Shown piece by piece: positions 1,668-63,223 of a stretch of 64,000 nt of DNA (positions within the stretch are counted from its first letter, which is position 1; every line of letters begins with the position of its first letter). The DNA is from an uncultured Rhodospirillaceae bacterium (lineage in GTDB: Bacteria; Pseudomonadota; Alphaproteobacteria; GCA-2731375): NCBI GenBank assembly GCA_964631725.1, contig CAZVYX010000003.1, positions 19,209-83,208 of the forward strand. Direction: 5' to 3'. Below the pieces are notes generated by a model that did not search any database, was not told the DNA's origin, and saw nothing but the letters and a program-made list of their open reading frames with translations. The position numbers and the translations under genes were made by a program.

Positions 1668-4022
1668 TCAGCCCGCCGCCTGCGCGGCACGCCAAATCTT
1701 TTCGGGTGTGGCCGGCATGTCCAGATGTTTGATGCCGAGGGCGTTGACGATGGCATTGATCACCGCCGGCGGCGCCGCGATGGCTCCCGCCTCGCCGCAA
1801 CCCTTGACACCCAATGGATTGTGCAACGGCACGGTCGGGGCATAATCCACATCGAACGATGGCAGATTATCGGCCCTGGGCATGCAGTAATCCTGGAACG
1901 AGCCGGAAACGAGCTGGCCGGAATCTTCGTCATAGACGCAGTGTTCCAACAAAGCCTGCCCGATGCCATGAGCCAGGCCGCCATGGACCTGACCTTCGAC
2001 GATCATCGGATTGACCAAGGTACCGAAATCATCGACCGCCGTGTACTTGACGATCTCCAAGGTGCCGGTATCGGGGTCGATCTCCACCTCGCAGACGTGT
2101 GCGCCGGCGGGGAAGGAGAAGTTCAAGGGATCGAAGAAGGCGATCTCGTCCAGGCCGGGCTCTACCCCTTCGGGGTAGTTGTGGGGCACATAGGCCGTGA
2201 ACGCGACCTCGGCGATATTCATCGCCTTGTCGGTGCCCGAGACCGTGAAGTTGCCGTCCGCGAACTCGATATCGTCCTCCGCCGCCTCAAGCGTATGGGC
2301 CGCGATCTTCTTGCCCTTGGCGATGATCTTGTCACAGGCATTGGCGATGGCGACGCCGCCGACGGGCAGCGAGCGCGAGCCATATGTGCCCATGCCGAAC
2401 TGACCCTTGTCGGTATCGCCGTGCACGACTTCGACCTGCTCCACCGGTACGCCAAGGCGTTCGGTAACCAGTTGGGCAAAGGCCGTTTCGTGGCCCTGAC
2501 CATGAGAATGCGTACCGGTAAAGACCGTGACGCCACCCGTCGGGTTAAAGCGGACCTGGGCCGATTCCCACAAACCAACGCCAACGCCCAAGGAGCCAAC
2601 AGCCGCCGAAGGCGCGACGCCGCAGGCCTCGATATAGGACGACAGACCGATGCCGCGCAGCCTGCCCCGGCCCTTGGCTTCCGCCTGGCGGGCGCCAAAG
2701 CCGTCGTAGTCGGCATTGGCCAGCGCCTTGTCGAGAGAGGCGTGATAGTCACCGGAGTCGTAGCACTGCACGACCGGCGTCTGGTACGGCATCTGATCGG
2801 CATTGATGAAGTTGCGTCGGCGGATTTCCGCCGGGTCCATGCCCATCTCAGCCGCCGAAACATCAACCAGGCGTTCCAGCAGATATGTCGCCTCCGGCCG
2901 GCCCGCACCGCGCGCCGCATCAACCGGCGCCGTGTTGGTCATGACACAACGCATATCGAGATAGATCGCCGGGGTGGTGTACTGTCCCGCCAGCAGGAAG
3001 CCGTGGAACAACGTCGGGATGGAGACCGAGAAGAGCTGCAGATAGGCCCCCATGTTGCCCTTGGACGTCACCCGCAAAGCAGTGAACTTGCCGTCCGCGT
3101 CCATGGCCATTTCCGCCTTGGTCACATGATCGCGGCCATGGGCATCGGACATGAAACCTTCCGAGCGGTCGGACGTCCATTTGACGGGACGGTTGACCTT
3201 TCTCGCGGCCCAGGCACAGATCGCCTCTTCATTATAGGTGAAGATTTTCGAACCGAAGCCGCCGCCAACATCGGGTGCCACGACGCGGAACTTATGCTCC
3301 GGCGCGATATTCATGAAGGCGGACATCACCAGGCGATGGACGTGCGGGTTTTGCGAAGTCAGATACAGGGTTGTCTCTTCGGTACCTGAATTGTATTCGC
3401 CCACAGCCGCGCGCGGCTCCATGGCGTTGGTGACCATGCGGTTGTTGACCAGTTCAACTTCCGCCGTCTTGTGCGCGGCGGCAAAGGCCGCGTCCACTGC
3501 CGCCTGATCGCCCAGTTCCCAATCCAGAGCCACATTGTTGGGGCATTCCTCGTGCAACTGCGGCGCGCCGTCAGCGTCCGCATTCGCGGTCGAAACGGTC
3601 GACGGCAGTTCGCTGTAGTCAATCGCCACCAGCTCCGCGCCGTCCTTGGCCTGAGCCAGGGTCTCGGCGATCACAACGGCGATGGGATCACCGACAAAGC
3701 GCGCCTTGTCCATGGTCAGGACGTTGCGCGGCGGGGTCTTGTTCACCTCGCCGCCCTTGCCGGTCACGGAGGCGCCGCAGACCAGGCCGCCAACTTCATC
3801 CGCCTGCAAATCCTGGCCGACGAATACGCCAACCACGCCAGGCGCGGATTTCGCCGCCGCCGTATCCACGGAATTGATCGTCGCATGGGCATGGGGCGAG
3901 CGTACGATGTACGCATGGGTCTGCCCCGGCCGGTTGATGTCGTCGGTATAGTTGCCCTTGCCGGTCAGAAACCGGTTGTCTTCCTTGCGCTTTAGCGAAG
4001 CGCCAATGCCATTCTCAGCCAT
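1668..4022 (-). CDS. coxL: CO dehydrogenase family large (molybdopterin) subunit, form II-like
   Basis: 784 aa from ATG 4020-4022 ([23 protein letters not shown]...). The active-site loop reads [12 protein letters not shown], which resembles the form II AYRGAGR signature rather than the form I AYRCSFR. Its start lies 1 nt after the coxS stop. Confidence 0.85.
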
Positions 4023-4647: not shown

Positions 4648-5358
4648 CTAATCACCCCTTAGCAGCGCGATAATCACAATCATGATGACGATCAGGCCGC
4701 CCAGCCAGACCCAGCGGGGCAGGCCGCCCTGCTCCGGCGCGGCACCGGCCCGATCTGCATCGGCTTCGCCCGGCGCCATGTCGCGGCTACGGACGTGCAG
4801 CATCTCGGGCGCCGCCTCGCCCGCCGCGCCGGCGGCATCGACCAGGGCGGGCGGCACCTCGGTCGCGGCACCTGGCCGGCCGGCCTCGGGCGTTGGTGCG
4901 GCCTCAGCTTCTGGCGCGGGCGCGGCAGCCAGCTGGGCGAAGACCGAGAAAAACTCCCCGGCCAGTTTCTTGGCCGTGCCGTCGATCAAACGGGAGCCGA
5001 TCTGCGCCAGCTTGCCTCCGACATTGGCGTTGACCTCGTATTGCAGCAAGGTGCCGTCACCATCTTCCACCAGGGTGACCTTGGCGCCGCCCTTGGCGAA
5101 ACCCGCGGCACCGCCCTTGCCTTCCCCTTGAATGGTATAGCCGTTGGGCGGATCCATGTCGGACAACGTCACCTGGCCCTGAAACTTGGCCTTCACCGGC
5201 CCCACCTTGGCGGTGACGGTCGCGGTGAAACTGTCATCACCAACCGCGTCCAGGTCACTGCAGCCGGGAATACTCGCCTTCAGAATTTCCGGATCATTCA
5301 ATGCCGCCCACACCCGCTCCCGCGATGCGGCAATGCGATATTCGCCTGATAAATCCAA
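4648..5358 (-). CDS. coxG: CoxG-like SRPBCC protein with C-terminal transmembrane anchor
   Basis: (M)DLSGEYRIAASRERVWAALNDPEILKASIPGC matches the CoxG N-terminal pattern. I infer a TTG start at 5356-5358, preceded by GAGGGGG. The C-terminus WVWLGGLIVIMIVIIALL is hydrophobic. The long ORF to 5850 has an implausible N-terminus. Confidence 0.65.
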   Translation of the reverse strand: MDLSGEYRIAASRERVWAALNDPEILKASIPGCSDLDAVGDDSFTATVTAKVGPVKAKFQGQVTLSDMDPPNGYTIQGEGKGGAAGFAKGGAKVTLVEDGDGTLLQYEVNANVGGKLAQIGSRLIDGTAKKLAGEFFSVFAQLAAAPAPEAEAAPTPEAGRPGAATEVPPALVDAAGAAGEAAPEMLHVRSRDMAPGEADADRAGAAPEQGGLPRWVWLGGLIVIMIVIIALLRGD

Positions 5359-15741: not shown

Positions 15742-20278
<4,537 letters not shown>

Positions 20279-59486: not shown

Positions 59487-59576
59487 TGGCGGATGGGGTG
59501 GGATTCGAACCCACGAGACGCTTTCACGCCTGCTGGTTTTCAAGACCAGTGCCTTCAACCACTCGGCCACCCATCC
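59487..59576 (-). tRNA. tRNA-Ser (anticodon UGA)
   Basis: The reverse complement GGATGGGTGGCCGAGTGGTTGAAGGCACTGGTCTTGAAAACCAGCAGGCGTGAAAGCGTCTCGTGGGTTCGAATCCCACCCCATCCGCCA folds as a class II tRNA. It has a 7-bp acceptor stem, anticodon loop CTTGAAA, a long variable arm, T-loop GGTTCGAATCC, and an encoded CCA. Confidence 0.9.
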
Positions 59577-59654: not shown

Positions 59655-61343
59655 CTAATTGCGGCTTTCCAACAAGCGCCGGGCGATGACCTGGGCCTGA
59701 ATTTCGCCCGCACCCTCGAATATATTCAGAATACGGGCATCGCAGAGCACCCGGGAGATCGGGAACTCCAACGAAAAACCATTGCCACCGTGGATCTGCA
59801 CCGCGTTGTCGGCCGATGACCAGGCGACCCGCGCCGCCAGCAGCTTGGCCATGCCCGCCTCCAGATCGCAGCGCCGGCCCTGATCCTTTTGCCGGGCGGC
59901 ATAATAGGTTAATTGCCGCGACAGCATGATCTCCACCGCCATCCAGGCCAGCTTGCCCGCGACCCGTGGGAAGCGCACGATGGCGCCGCCGAACTGCTGG
60001 CGCTCGATACCGTAGTTCAGGCCAAGCTCGAAGGCATTCTGGGCCACGCCGACGGCCCGGGCGGCGGTCTGGATGCGGGCGGACTCAAACGTCGCCATGA
60101 GCTGTTTGAAGCCGTTGCCTTCCTCGCCGCCCAATAGATTGTCGGCCCCGACCTCAAAACCATCGAAGGCGATCTCATATTCCTTCATGCCGCGATAGCC
60201 CAGCACCTCGATCTCGCCGCCCGACATGCCCTCCGCCGGGAACGGATCATCGACCGTGCCGCGCGGTTTTTCGGCCAGAAGCATGGACAAGCCCCTGTAA
60301 CCGCGTTGATCGGGGTCGGTGCGCGCCAGCAGGGTCATCATATCGGCCCGGGCGGCATGGGTGATCCAGGTCTTGTTACCCTGGACCTTGTAGGCATCGC
60401 CGTCACGGATGGCGCGGGTGCCGACACTGCCCAGGTCCGAGCCCACATTCGGCTCGGTAAAGACGGCGGTGGGCAGGATTTCGCCCGAGGCGATCTTGGG
60501 TAGCCAATGTTCACGCTGTTGCTCGGTACCGCCGTGCAGGATCAATTCGGCGGCGATCTCGGATCGCGTGCCAAGGGAGCCGACACCGATATAGCCCCGG
60601 CAAAGCTCCTCCGACACCACGCACATGGCGGTCTTGCCCATGCCGTGGCCGCCGTATTGCTCGGGGATAGTCAGGCCGAAGACGCCCATCTCGCTCATGC
60701 CGGAGACCACGTCCATGGGGATCAACTCGTCACGCATATGCCAGCCATGGGCATCGGGGGTGACATTTTCCTCGGTGAAGCGGCGGAATTGGTCGCGCAC
60801 CATGGACAGGGTCTCATCCAGGCCCAGTTCGCCGAATTCGGCACTGCTGGCCGCCTCGACCAACAGCAGGGCCAGTTGGTCGCGGCCGGCCTGGGTATTG
60901 CCCTGGGCGATCAGACGCTGCACCGCGTCGGTGCGAAAGGCCGCCAGATCATCACCGTCCAGGCCCAGATCGATGGGCCGCACCACCTCGATCTGGCTCA
61001 TGGCGATGCCATTGGCCATTTCCGTCAGATAGCCGCCAAAACCCAATTGCAGCAGCAACTGCTCCAATCGGCTGAACCGGCCATCGGCCGACAATTTCTC
61101 CGCCCAAGCCAGGCTTTGCCGCAGGGCCTCGTTATAGGTCGCCAGCCAGGCCAGGCCATGCACGGCGAACTGCTGCGCCTCTATCAGGCCGGCATTGACG
61201 GCGCCGTCCCTTGATACCATGGCGCGGACGCCGTTCCGGGCCCGGGCCAGCAAATCGTCAGCCGATGCCAGCGCGCTGCCGCATAACTGCAATAAATCCT
61301 CAACGGCGATTCCGTCCTCGGGGCTGTCGGCAGCTTGCATCAT
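59655..61343 (-). CDS. long-form acyl-CoA dehydrogenase family protein
   Basis: 562 aa; an N-terminal ~180-aa extension, then ACAD core motifs (TEPNVGSD, GGNGF...) in the C-terminal half. Confidence 0.8.
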   Translation of the reverse strand: MMQAADSPEDGIAVEDLLQLCGSALASADDLLARARNGVRAMVSRDGAVNAGLIEAQQFAVHGLAWLATYNEALRQSLAWAEKLSADGRFSRLEQLLLQLGFGGYLTEMANGIAMSQIEVVRPIDLGLDGDDLAAFRTDAVQRLIAQGNTQAGRDQLALLLVEAASSAEFGELGLDETLSMVRDQFRRFTEENVTPDAHGWHMRDELIPMDVVSGMSEMGVFGLTIPEQYGGHGMGKTAMCVVSEELCRGYIGVGSLGTRSEIAAELILHGGTEQQREHWLPKIASGEILPTAVFTEPNVGSDLGSVGTRAIRDGDAYKVQGNKTWITHAARADMMTLLARTDPDQRGYRGLSMLLAEKPRGTVDDPFPAEGMSGGEIEVLGYRGMKEYEIAFDGFEVGADNLLGGEEGNGFKQLMATFESARIQTAARAVGVAQNAFELGLNYGIERQQFGGAIVRFPRVAGKLAWMAVEIMLSRQLTYYAARQKDQGRRCDLEAGMAKLLAARVAWSSADNAVQIHGGNGFSLEFPISRVLCDARILNIFEGAGEIQAQVIARRLLESRN

Positions 61344-61541
61344 GTTCCTCTTTCAATCTGTCTCCGGACCCGGCCACGAATTTCAGCGATAGGTGATGGT
61401 GGTCACTCGCGAAATCCGCCGGCGGGCCCATCTGTTAATGGCACACCACGATCTTCCTCGTGATTAGCGACTCAGAGGCCCGATGTCGAGTACCCCTCCC
61501 CCCTGGCATCGGCGGTTCGAATACCGTTCTGTCTCTGCACC

Positions 61542-61579
61542 TGACGGCGGCCGGCGAAATGCCGGTCGCCGTTTCTTTT
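61542..61579 (+). terminator. orphan rho-independent terminator in a 500-bp non-coding region
   Basis: GACGGCGGCCGGC gaaat GCCGGTCGCCGTT followed by tcTTTTTgg. There is no + strand CDS upstream; acd is on the minus strand. Confidence 0.55.
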
Positions 61580-61851
61580 TGGTTAATCAATTCTAACCAT
61601 GGTGGCAAAAATCGACCAAAGTGTGATGGCCGTCAATGTTTCGCTAAGTCTTTGGGTGCTAGGTTCTTGTTCAAGGCGCGGATCGGTGCCTGAGGCCTCT
61701 GGTGAGAGTGGCCACCCCCGTTACCCTTCCTCCGGCGCAGATGGCGGTGGTCTAGAGGTTGCAGGTTCGATCCGCGCCCCCAATCACACCTTTGCCGCAC
61801 GCTATTTCAGTAAATGCCAACGATTTCGCCCGAATGGGCGCAATTCGGCCG

Positions 61852-62247
61852 CTAAAGCAGATCAACACCGGCGCGCGCGCAATCTTCGTCTTCCTGCCCG
61901 GTACCGCCGCCGACACCGCAGGCGCCTTCGACAATGCCATTTCGAATGATCGGTACCGCCCCCTGCCCCATGATCATGTGGCCTCCTTCGGCGGCAACGA
62001 TTCCACGGAATGTGGGATGGTCGGCCCGTTCGGTAAGCTCGCCGCTGGGACGGCCAAACGAGGCCGAGGCGACCGCCTTGCCCTGGCTGCCATAGGCGCC
62101 GGCCCACATGGCGTTATCCATGCGCTGGAATGCCATCAATCGGCCGCCGGTATCGCATACGGCAACGTTGATCCTGATGTTGAGTTCTTCCGCCTTGGCC
62201 AAGGCGCCTTGCGCGATGCGATTGGCCTCTTCCAGGGTCAGCGCCAT
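61852..62247 (-). CDS. GlcG/HbpS-like heme-binding protein (DUF336)
   Basis: 131 aa, MALTLEEANRIAQGALAKAEELNIRINVAVCDTGGRLMAFQRMD... Confidence 0.65.
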   Translation of the reverse strand: MALTLEEANRIAQGALAKAEELNIRINVAVCDTGGRLMAFQRMDNAMWAGAYGSQGKAVASASFGRPSGELTERADHPTFRGIVAAEGGHMIMGQGAVPIIRNGIVEGACGVGGGTGQEDEDCARAGVDLL

Positions 62248-62368
62248 GGTCTGTCTCCTTCTTCCTCTGGATTTGTCGAAGCATTACAGATTGATCACGA
62301 CAACAGGTAGCAAGACTACTGGATGATGGTCATTGTCACTAGCGCCAAGGCAAGCGCCTACCGCCGGA

Positions 62369-63223
62369 TCATAGATCGGCGAACCCCAGGGACCGGCGCA
62401 GTTCCGCCGGGTCCCAGCCCTCCGCGCGCAATTGCGACAGACTGATAGCGCCCTGACGCTTGGCCAGACGGACGCCCTCATCGTCGCGCAGCAAACGGTG
62501 ATGGTCATATTCGGGGGTCGGCAGGTCCAACAAGGCCTGCAACAGCCGGTGCACATGACTGGCGGCGAATAAATCGGCGCCGCGCGTGACGTGGGTTACG
62601 CCCTGCAGGGCATCATCCACGGACACCGCGAGATGATAGGACGTGGGGGTGTCCTTGCGGGCCAGGACCACATCGCCGTGCAGGGCTGCTTGCAATGATT
62701 GTTGGCCTTTTTGCCGGTCGTGCCAGGATAGGCCGGGACCGACACGCGCCGCCGCCAGGCCGCTGTCCAGGCGGATGGCATAAGGCGCGCCGCCGGCCAT
62801 CCGCTCAGTGCAGGCCGCCTCGGACAGCCGCCGGCAGGTACCGGGGTAAAGCGCGCCGTCGGGGCCATGGGGCGCGGAAGGCGCGGCGGCAATTTCCGCC
62901 GCGATCTCCTTGCGGGTACAAAAACAGGGATAGGTCAGCTCCGCCGCCGCCAGGGTTTCCAACGCGGCGGCATAGTCATCCATATGTTCCGATTGCCGGC
63001 GTACCGGCTGTTCCCATTCCAGGCCCAGCCAGGCCAGATCCGCCAGCATGGCGGTCTCGTGCTCCGGCCGGCAGCGGCCTTGGTCAATATCCTCCACCCG
63101 CAACAAGAACCGCCCGCCCAAGACCCGGGCGGCGGCAAAGCTGTACAGGGCCGAAAAACCATTGCCCAAATGCAGGGGGCCGGTGGGACTGGGGGCAAAT
63201 CTTACGACGGCAGTCGGTGACAA
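62369..63223 (-). CDS. gluQ: glutamyl-Q tRNA(Asp) synthetase (truncated GluRS paralog)
   Basis: 284 aa, VVRFAPSPTGPLHLGN (HIGH-type motif). It has a class I catalytic core but no anticodon-binding domain. Confidence 0.75.
   Translation of the reverse strand: MSPTAVVRFAPSPTGPLHLGNGFSALYSFAAARVLGGRFLLRVEDIDQGRCRPEHETAMLADLAWLGLEWEQPVRRQSEHMDDYAAALETLAAAELTYPCFCTRKEIAAEIAAAPSAPHGPDGALYPGTCRRLSEAACTERMAGGAPYAIRLDSGLAAARVGPGLSWHDRQKGQQSLQAALHGDVVLARKDTPTSYHLAVSVDDALQGVTHVTRGADLFAASHVHRLLQALLDLPTPEYDHHRLLRDDEGVRLAKRQGAISLSQLRAEGWDPAELRRSLGFADL

Follow-up and report, generated by a model that had tools for sequence, protein, structure and literature searches.

Xanthomonas sX13 is one of the bacterial small RNAs (sRNAs) that carry C-rich hairpin loops. 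The alpha-r14 or 'cuckoo' RNAs (Rfam RF02344, ar14), to which SmrC14 and NfeR1 of S. meliloti and RSs0680a-d of Rhodobacter belong, are trans-encoded sRNAs of Alphaproteobacteria with C-rich, anti-Shine-Dalgarno-like motifs in their hairpin loops; they are built from two to four simple hairpins of 24-50 nt that lie next to one another, carry CCUCCUCCC in every loop and form no multiloop (PMC4615179). In C-rich-loop sRNAs from other phyla, RNAIII of S. aureus and the UCCC-loop sRNAs, conserved hairpin loops pair with ribosome-binding regions rich in G, and for sRNAs of this type as a whole a block of translation has been proposed as the mechanism (PMC4615179). In this work we analysed a window of 64,000 nucleotides from an uncultured Rhodospirillaceae bacterium (contig CAZVYX010000003.1) and within it the gap at 61344-61851, which is flanked by two minus-strand genes, an acyl-CoA dehydrogenase gene (called mcd here after the name given to close homologues) and a GlcG/HbpS-like gene. 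This gap contains two single-copy, conserved and folded noncoding elements on the plus strand, E1 and E2, with compensatory changes in both, and the first of them ends at an intrinsic terminator. The locus is a real feature and not a product of chance. We consider it probable that E1 and E2 are two tandem sRNA genes which are transcribed away from mcd, have promoters of their own and repress translation in trans by means of their C-rich loops.

Using the dehydrogenase as an anchor, 80 genomic loci were retrieved, and additions brought the set to 98 loci in all. The divergent members L082 and L084 were located in metagenomes with a degenerate DNA pattern taken from the most conserved stretch, and L088, L091 and L094 were added from contigs encoding dehydrogenase homologues. 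The nearest loci are marine metagenome bins labelled Rhodospirillaceae or Alphaproteobacteria, with 85-92% protein identity to the dehydrogenase. The conserved module spans positions 61392-61780 of the window and is kept in about ten related marine alphaproteobacterial contigs. According to a blastn comparison of the gap, L001, L005 and L006 share the conserved stretch 61392-61778 with the window, L002 shares its first half and L004 one hairpin of it; a blastn search against a plasmid collection gave no match. Within the module, conserved islands with a pairwise identity of 80-87% stand against 21-57% between and after them. A palindromic box upstream of E1 (box 1) shows a mean pairwise identity of 79.5%, compared with 44-47% in its flanks, and is followed by a spacer with 47%. 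The E1 core (85%) and the E1 terminator (81%) are succeeded by a stretch with 38%. The block at 61615-61640 around a second box (box 2) shows 80% identity, compared with 38-51% in its flanks, and E2 reaches 86.5% before the identity falls to 21% after its end. The covariance models R1 for E1 and R2 for E2 detected one copy each in the window and only syntenic copies across the 98 loci. The downstream neighbour of the module varies: in the window the glcG-like gene converges on it, in L005, L006, L084, L088 and L091 it is GluQRS, likewise convergent, and L001 has a Sel1/ankyrin gene that runs in the same direction. Since the module stays beside mcd while the downstream neighbour changes, it is not a leader of the downstream gene.

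E1 (about 61441-61582, plus strand) is a predicted sRNA of about 140 nt with an inferred 5' end and the terminator as 3' end. R1 scored 66-127 bits in nine relatives and found nothing elsewhere, and the fold has a z value of -2.9. Near the 5' end lies the conserved block GGCACACCAC (61440-61449, plus strand), of which GGCACAC is invariant in the window clade; this block may be the 5' end of E1 or a seed region. The 5' strand of helix P1, CAGAGGC (61473-61479), pairs with GUCUCUG (61531-61537). One pair of P1 flips from G-C to C-G in three sequences, and the adjacent pair is A-U, G-U or G-C. P1 encloses the hairpin P2 (61480-61512), which is formed by CCGAUGUC (61480-61487) and GGCAUCGG (61505-61512); its loop of 17 nt holds CCCCUCCCCCC (61493-61503) and displays CCCCUCCCC. 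Both CCCGAUGUCGAGU and CCUCCCC of P2 are invariant or nearly so. The first of these motifs (61480-61492), which comprises the 5' strand of P2 and the first loop bases, is invariant in nine of ten members, and its pairing partner varies. The terminator (61543-61582) is a GC-rich stem-loop of 14 pairs (61543-61573) followed by a U tract (tail TCTTTTTGGT / TCTTTTT), as in Rho-independent terminators; its stem is conserved, three of its pairs show compensatory changes, and the reverse strand has no U tract. In the alignment of ten E1 sequences, 92.7% of the cells of 33 pairs are paired. Double-sided changes are seen at four pairs, of which P1 contributes one and the terminator three, and the covariation score was reached by 2 of 500 shuffles. 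The consensus energy calculated with RNAalifold was -49.7 kcal/mol for the forward strand compared with -40.5 kcal/mol for the reverse strand.

E2 (61674-61780, plus strand) is a single extended hairpin of 105 nt. It contains four helices (61675-61690/61764-61778, 61694-61699/61755-61760, 61710-61722/61740-61752 and 61725-61726/61734-61735), and R2 scored 109-128 bits in seven relatives. Two motifs are identical in eight of eight sequences: the internal loop GUGAGAGU on the 5' side (61702-61709) and the apical, anti-Shine-Dalgarno-like CCUUCCUCC (61725-61733) with the terminal loop UUCCUCC (61727-61733). In the alignment of these sequences 35 pairs are formed in 97.5% of the cells. Double-sided changes occur at four pairs in three of the four helices; in L088, for instance, A-U replaces G-C in a basal helix that is otherwise invariant. 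On four of five measures the observed values were reached by none of 500 shuffles, and pairing falls to 31-50% when the partners are slid. RNAalifold gave -53.5 kcal/mol for the forward strand versus -37.1 kcal/mol for the reverse strand, and in the window the basal helix contains a perfect inverted repeat of 11 bp. The GC-rich base of E2 probably doubles as the terminator of this RNA; in L001, L082, L088 and L094 the hairpin continues into a GCUUU(U)C tail. The near-invariance of E2, which includes the stems, hints at an additional constraint, for example protein binding.

Both elements were assigned to the plus strand because many of their G-U pairs would be A-C mismatches on the other strand and because the consensus energies favour it. 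The mechanical open reading frames of 61344-61851 gave no Pfam match, and their frames are interrupted by indels in the relatives; for these two reasons we regard them as not protein-coding. The initial annotation, which was made from the window sequence by itself, had already described a gap without a plausible open reading frame between two minus-strand genes, and it had proposed a plus-strand sRNA locus with a transcript of 100-200 nt that ends at a strong terminator without an upstream plus-strand gene. The flanking genes and the lack of a coding frame were confirmed, the terminator is the conserved stem-loop described above, and the estimated length fits the inferred length of E1. Synteny-independent conservation, compensatory changes in both elements and the strand asymmetry support a plus-strand sRNA locus, as proposed. 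The initial annotation did not see that the module consists of two separate elements, each located after a box of the CRP/FNR type.

Sites of the CRP/FNR family typically show the spacing TGA-N6-TCA, and in the class II promoters of sRNAs activated by CRP or FNR, such as the enterobacterial CyaR and FnrS, this palindrome replaces the -35 element. Box 1 (61393-61406) lies between mcd and E1 and is the palindrome GTGATGGTGGTCAC with the pattern GTGAY-N4-RTCAC (GTGA-N6-TCAC). It is found at the same place in every member and also in the distant relatives L090, L093, L096 and L098. The -10-like hexamer CATCTG (61429-61434, plus strand; consensus YATNTN), part of the putative E1 promoter, follows 22 nt after box 1. 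This distance is the same in 13 of 13 sequences, the spacer sequence itself not being conserved, and the invariant GGCACAC begins about five bases past the hexamer. Box 2, GTGATGGCCGTCAA (61623-61636, plus strand; GTGAY-N4-RTCAA), is located inside the conserved block 61615-61640. It precedes the extended -10-like sequence TGcTAGGTT (61657-61665, plus strand; TGnTAnnnT) of the putative E2 promoter, with the hexamer 23 nt after the box in eight of eight sequences; the TA is invariant, TGnTAnnnT is kept in six of the eight, and the first base of the E2 hairpin lies about eight bases past the TAnnnT hexamer. Thus both boxes combine a TGA-N6-TCA palindrome with a fixed distance to a -10 hexamer, as in class II CRP/FNR promoters. 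Boxes 1 and 2 are the only occurrences of the box pattern in the 64-kb window compared with 0.37 expected by chance, a test with some circularity, as these two sites had supplied the pattern. Depending on the lineage, 42 to 166 nt lie between box 1 and mcd, while the distance to the hexamer is fixed, so that box 1 is linked more closely with the RNA promoter than with mcd. Co-regulation of the sRNAs with mcd through the shared box 1, by divergent control, is possible. The pattern GTGAY-N4-RTCAC was also observed about 0.6-2.2 kb downstream of the dehydrogenase in Roseibium loci (L044 at 6354, L055 at 7829 and L056 at 6209), and the box may belong to a wider regulon.

In the mechanism that we propose, each element would have its own activator-dependent promoter with a CRP/FNR-type box and a -10-like hexamer 22-23 nt further on. 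Transcription starts about 7 nt after each hexamer would centre the boxes near -41.5, as in the class II activator geometry, and would result in RNAs of about 140 nt for E1 and about 105 nt for E2. E1 would start near the GGCACAC block, fold into P1 enclosing P2 with CCCCUCCCC exposed in the P2 loop, and end at the Rho-independent terminator. The anti-Shine-Dalgarno-like loops CCCCUCCCC and CCUUCCUCC would then pair with ribosome-binding sites of target mRNAs and thereby block their translation in trans. E1 and E2 show the general features of trans-encoded sRNAs: they are free-standing, noncoding and conserved in structure, and they keep a conserved unpaired motif. A more far-reaching version appears doubtful to us. 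According to this version E1 and E2 would be a hitherto unrecognised pair of riboregulators, controlled by one transcription factor of the CRP/FNR type through boxes 1 and 2 and coupled to mcd both physically and in function. The pair would adjust the ethylmalonyl-CoA pathway and the assimilation of carbon in uncultivated alphaproteobacteria of oxygen minimum zones and the deep ocean, and E2, in view of its 90% identity even within the stems and of its invariant internal loop, could be a new protein-binding structured RNA.

Several observations weigh against two independent, base-pairing sRNA genes. The alignments comprise 8-10 sequences from a narrow clade, and the shuffle controls therefore overstate independence. 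P2 shows no double-sided change in the set of ten sequences, and the conservation of its 5' strand CCCGAUGUCGAGU exceeds what pairing needs, so some further constraint exists, for example a second seed, a start codon or the binding of a protein. The U tracts 3' of E1 are weak in L005, L006, L084 and L088, and no U tract and no GCUUU(U)C tail follow the E2 hairpin in the window. The overall identity of 90% across E2, stems included, is also more than an RNA that pairs through a seed only would need. The 5' ends and both promoters are predicted from spacing alone. A weak tblastn search with E. coli CRP and FNR queries found no gene of the CRP/FNR family in the window, and a search for complements to either loop, which covered the 64-kb window only, yielded no convincing target.

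The relatives have lost parts of the module in different ways. In L004 and L092 box 1 and most of E1 are lost and only the P2 hairpin is kept, which in L004 is maintained by a different pairing as judged by eye. In L094 (2177-2336, minus strand) a natural deletion joins the 3' arm of the E1 terminator to the apex of E2 on the same strand; the resulting chimera retains both C-rich motifs, including CCUUCCUCC, the orphaned 3' strand of the E2 basal helix and the GCUUUUCUUUC tail. In L002 (about 3560-3700, minus strand) and also in L083 and L086, a deletion extends from inside box 2 (after GTGTGATGGCC) into a Sel1-repeat gene and removes E2 together with the 5' half of this gene.

Instead of two genes, E1 and E2 could form a single transcription unit in which the box 1 promoter drives E1 up to a leaky or regulated terminator, and read-through yields E2, maybe after processing and without a promoter of its own. 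E1 always precedes E2 on the same strand, at a distance of about 90 nt, the chimera of L094 shows that both can share one transcript, the U tracts of E1 are weak in several genomes, and the E2 promoter is itself only predicted. We nevertheless hold a single unit to be unlikely, as a conserved box 2 and the TGnTAnnnT sequence intervene with the same spacing as box 1 and its hexamer, and the region just past the terminator is only 38% identical.

The position of box 1, 56 nt upstream of the mcd start codon, and its retention, which is wider than that of any other feature and extends to loci with 73% Mcd identity, would also suit a regulation of mcd at the DNA level. The conservation would then reflect operators, a promoter and a long minus-strand leader rather than RNA genes on the plus strand. 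However, the conservation reaches as far as 435 nt from mcd, and the helices in this region pair through compensatory and G-U changes that fit only the plus strand. In L097 GluQRS and mcd are separated by 21 nt without the RNA module or any such sequence, L004 and L092 are without box 1 and most of E1, and the variable distance from box 1 to mcd (42-166 nt) is opposed to the fixed distance to the plus-strand hexamer. We regard this explanation as highly unlikely.

A third explanation is based on the sequence ATGTCGAG (61482-61490), which is invariant in 11 of 11 sequences and opens the frame MSSTPP from the ATG at 61483. E1 could encode a tiny leader peptide, MSSTPP[P/R]..., whose translation, or stalling at the proline run, controls the terminator by attenuation. 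The first six to seven codons are alike (MSS-x-P-P/L-P/R), L004 differs by synonymous changes at third positions (AGT to AGC and CCT to CCG), and some members have GAGG 5 nt upstream. Past codon 7, however, frame and length vary (13, 14, 15, 37 and more than 40 codons, with indels of 1 nt), the AUG is buried in P2 and the Shine-Dalgarno-like GAGG in P1, and no structural gene follows on the plus strand. In L005, L006 and L082 the GAGG is changed to GACG or GGCG, and a compensating change keeps the pairing of P1. Because the loss of GAGG is compensated on the opposite strand of P1, selection acts on the P1 pairing and not on a ribosome-binding site, and attenuation by a leader peptide is quite improbable in our estimation.

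There is only a slight chance that E2 serves mainly to terminate the transcription of the convergent gene, GluQRS or, for the window, glcG, or to stabilise its 3' end, or that it terminates transcription in both directions. In L005, L006, L084, L088 and L091 there are indeed 7-30 nt between the end of E2 and the stop codon of GluQRS, but where genes are inserted, as glcG in the window and Sel1/ankyrin in L001, E2 stays with E1 and mcd and not with GluQRS. Moreover its loops are invariant, which a terminator does not need, and the minus-strand fold is much weaker and without a following U tract.

The initial annotation had further reported a T-loop consensus inside a 7-bp hairpin (ggcgcag...ccgcgcc) and had offered a tRNA remnant or a part of a structured noncoding RNA as explanations. 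The string, GGTTCGATCC at 61764-61773 on the plus strand, is present, but the 7-bp hairpin is not the fold that the data support: the string is the 3' strand of the E2 basal helix and pairs with 61680-61690, as 61764-61778 pair with 61675-61690 instead. In relatives it is replaced by GGCCCGATCC, GGCTCGATCC or GAGCCCGATCC. Because the string varies in this way, the T-loop consensus is not under selection, and its likeness to a T loop is a coincidence. A second T-loop-like string, GGTTCGAAT (61514-61522), shares 14 of 17 positions with the T arm of the tRNA-Ser close by and was found only in the window's own copy of E1. A decayed tRNA or tmRNA, the two-piece type included, or an integration scar duplicating a tRNA 3' end thus has practically no probability left in spite of the two strings and a tRNA-Ser gene at 1.8 kb: ARAGORN and Rfam gave no tRNA or tmRNA match in the gap even at E<=10, neither string is conserved, and beyond the generic match at 14 of 17 T-loop positions there is no direct repeat with the tRNA-Ser 3' end. 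It is the second explanation of the initial annotation that holds, since the string belongs to the E2 hairpin.

Some other candidates were rejected. A signal recognition particle (SRP) RNA or 6S RNA was considered for E2 on account of its extended-hairpin shape and of GGAGGAAGG at the minus-strand apex; neither strand gave an Rfam match, and the pattern of G-U pairs is compatible with the plus strand only. Repetitive extragenic palindromes (REP) and miniature inverted-repeat transposable elements (MITE) were dismissed, R1 and R2 being present once in the window and only as syntenic copies in the 98 loci. Matches to GATGTCGAG in the Beijerinckiaceae loci L037, L042 and L078 are unrelated intergenic terminator hairpins, and an exact CCTCCTCCC at 19720 lies within an open reading frame of 563 aa and is not an sRNA.

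Parts of the module can be followed into more distant relatives. Loci with 73-76% Mcd identity (L093, L096, L098 and perhaps L095) retain box 1 and the hexamer, and at 72% Mcd identity or less the box is absent upstream of the dehydrogenase. A divergent RNA-like region is kept in these 73-76% loci too, and several of its hairpin loops are C-rich; those of L093 include CCCCCCAACCCC, GACCUCC, AUCCCUCCC and UUCCCCCC. The loci with 73-76% identity share a (C/U)GAGUACC motif and a GGCGGCCGG terminator, and they have a small gene with an ACT_12 domain in place of E2. R1 does not detect these distant regions (10 bits), and Rfam searches of them gave nothing near threshold. Just upstream of the small gene, L089, L093, L095, L096 and L098 contain the motif ATCGGGCGAATTA, followed by a hairpin GGCCCGGCCATC-N4-GATGGCCGGG; the gene product matches ACT_12 in L089, L093, L095 and L096 and has no Pfam match in L098. 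This motif with its hairpin may be a separate cis-regulatory element.

The interval between GluQRS and mcd is a hot spot of gene gain and loss (window 61779-62368; L001 1729-3264; L089, L093, L095, L096; L097). The inserted genes are glcG/HbpS-like in the window, TauD in the P0013 contig, Sel1/ankyrin in L001 and the small ACT_12-domain gene in the 74-76% clade (L089, L093, L095 and L096). In the window the dehydrogenase gene (59655-61343, minus strand) encodes 562 aa with an N-terminal extension of 175 residues. Several close homologues carry the label (2S)-methylsuccinyl-CoA dehydrogenase (Mcd), an enzyme of the ethylmalonyl-CoA pathway, from JGI as the one source of this name. Just downstream of mcd, and 1.8 kb from the gap, ARAGORN and Rfam identified a tRNA-Ser(TGA) gene (59487-59576, minus strand), the only tRNA of the window. 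In L088 a tRNA gene at 4815-4901 (plus strand) is likewise located downstream of the dehydrogenase, and because both loci show this arrangement the linkage of tRNA and dehydrogenase is conserved. The GlcG/HbpS-like gene (61852-62247, minus strand) encodes 131 aa, and the GluQRS gene (62369-63223) lies beyond it. Directly after the glcG-like stop codon lies a 9-bp inverted repeat, CGCCCGAAT/ATTCGGCCG (61827-61851), which is not part of the conserved RNA module and may be a minus-strand 3'-end hairpin of the glcG-like gene.

If the interpretation as two tandem sRNA genes is correct, the gap holds two uncatalogued sRNA families that are absent from Rfam 15. Their hosts are little-studied marine alphaproteobacteria known mainly from metagenome bins (Saanich Inlet, eastern tropical North Pacific, deep ocean and Antarctic waters). 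A candidate regulatory box would link these sRNAs to a gene named for the ethylmalonyl-CoA pathway, and the two defined intervals would allow concrete tests of post-transcriptional control in organisms not amenable to culture. General principles are unchanged by this, as both C-rich-loop sRNAs and activator-dependent sRNA promoters are well known.

For comparison with known families, Rfam scans were performed on the window at gathering scores, on the gap at E<=10 and on six related loci at E<=5. Apart from the tRNA-Ser gene of the window, no family reached its threshold in these scans, which otherwise gave only sub-threshold alignments (suhB 16 bits, ar14 14, Xoo2 27 and sX11 30); those to suhB and ar14 are both on the plus strand over 61475-61586. 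The gap at E<=10 showed no tRNA, tmRNA, SRP or 6S match, alpha-r14 (RF02344) was absent from the scan of the relatives as well, and a literature search for sRNAs linked to mcd or for C-rich sRNAs of Rhodospirillales found nothing relevant. The best of the weak Rfam alignments (61511-61586) was to MmgR/alpha-r8 (RF00519, suhB), an sRNA of Alphaproteobacteria in which a terminator comes after a C-rich stretch; its score of 16.1 bits (E = 1.3) compares with a gathering score of 41, and the match is essentially the terminator alone. RNAIII of S. aureus and the UCCC-loop sRNAs are analogues without homology, and the likeness of the E1 and E2 boxes to promoters of the CyaR and FnrS type is one of spacing only.

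The closest relationship in kind is to the alpha-r14/cuckoo RNAs. The E1 loop of the window, CCUCCCCCC, is one mismatch away from CCUCCUCCC, and the weak ar14 alignment places this loop on the motif loop of the family. The motif itself is not kept, since E1 has CCUCCCCGC in the relatives and E2 has CCUUCCUCC. The architecture differs as well: E1 has the enclosing helix P1, and E2 is a single hairpin of 105 nt. Finally, the ar14 score is 14 bits (E = 4.1) compared with a gathering score of 58.8. As motif, architecture and Rfam score each fail, the locus is not a member of the alpha-r14/cuckoo family, yet it would work like one: E1 and E2 are an uncatalogued sRNA pair of a familiar kind with a narrow phylogenetic range.

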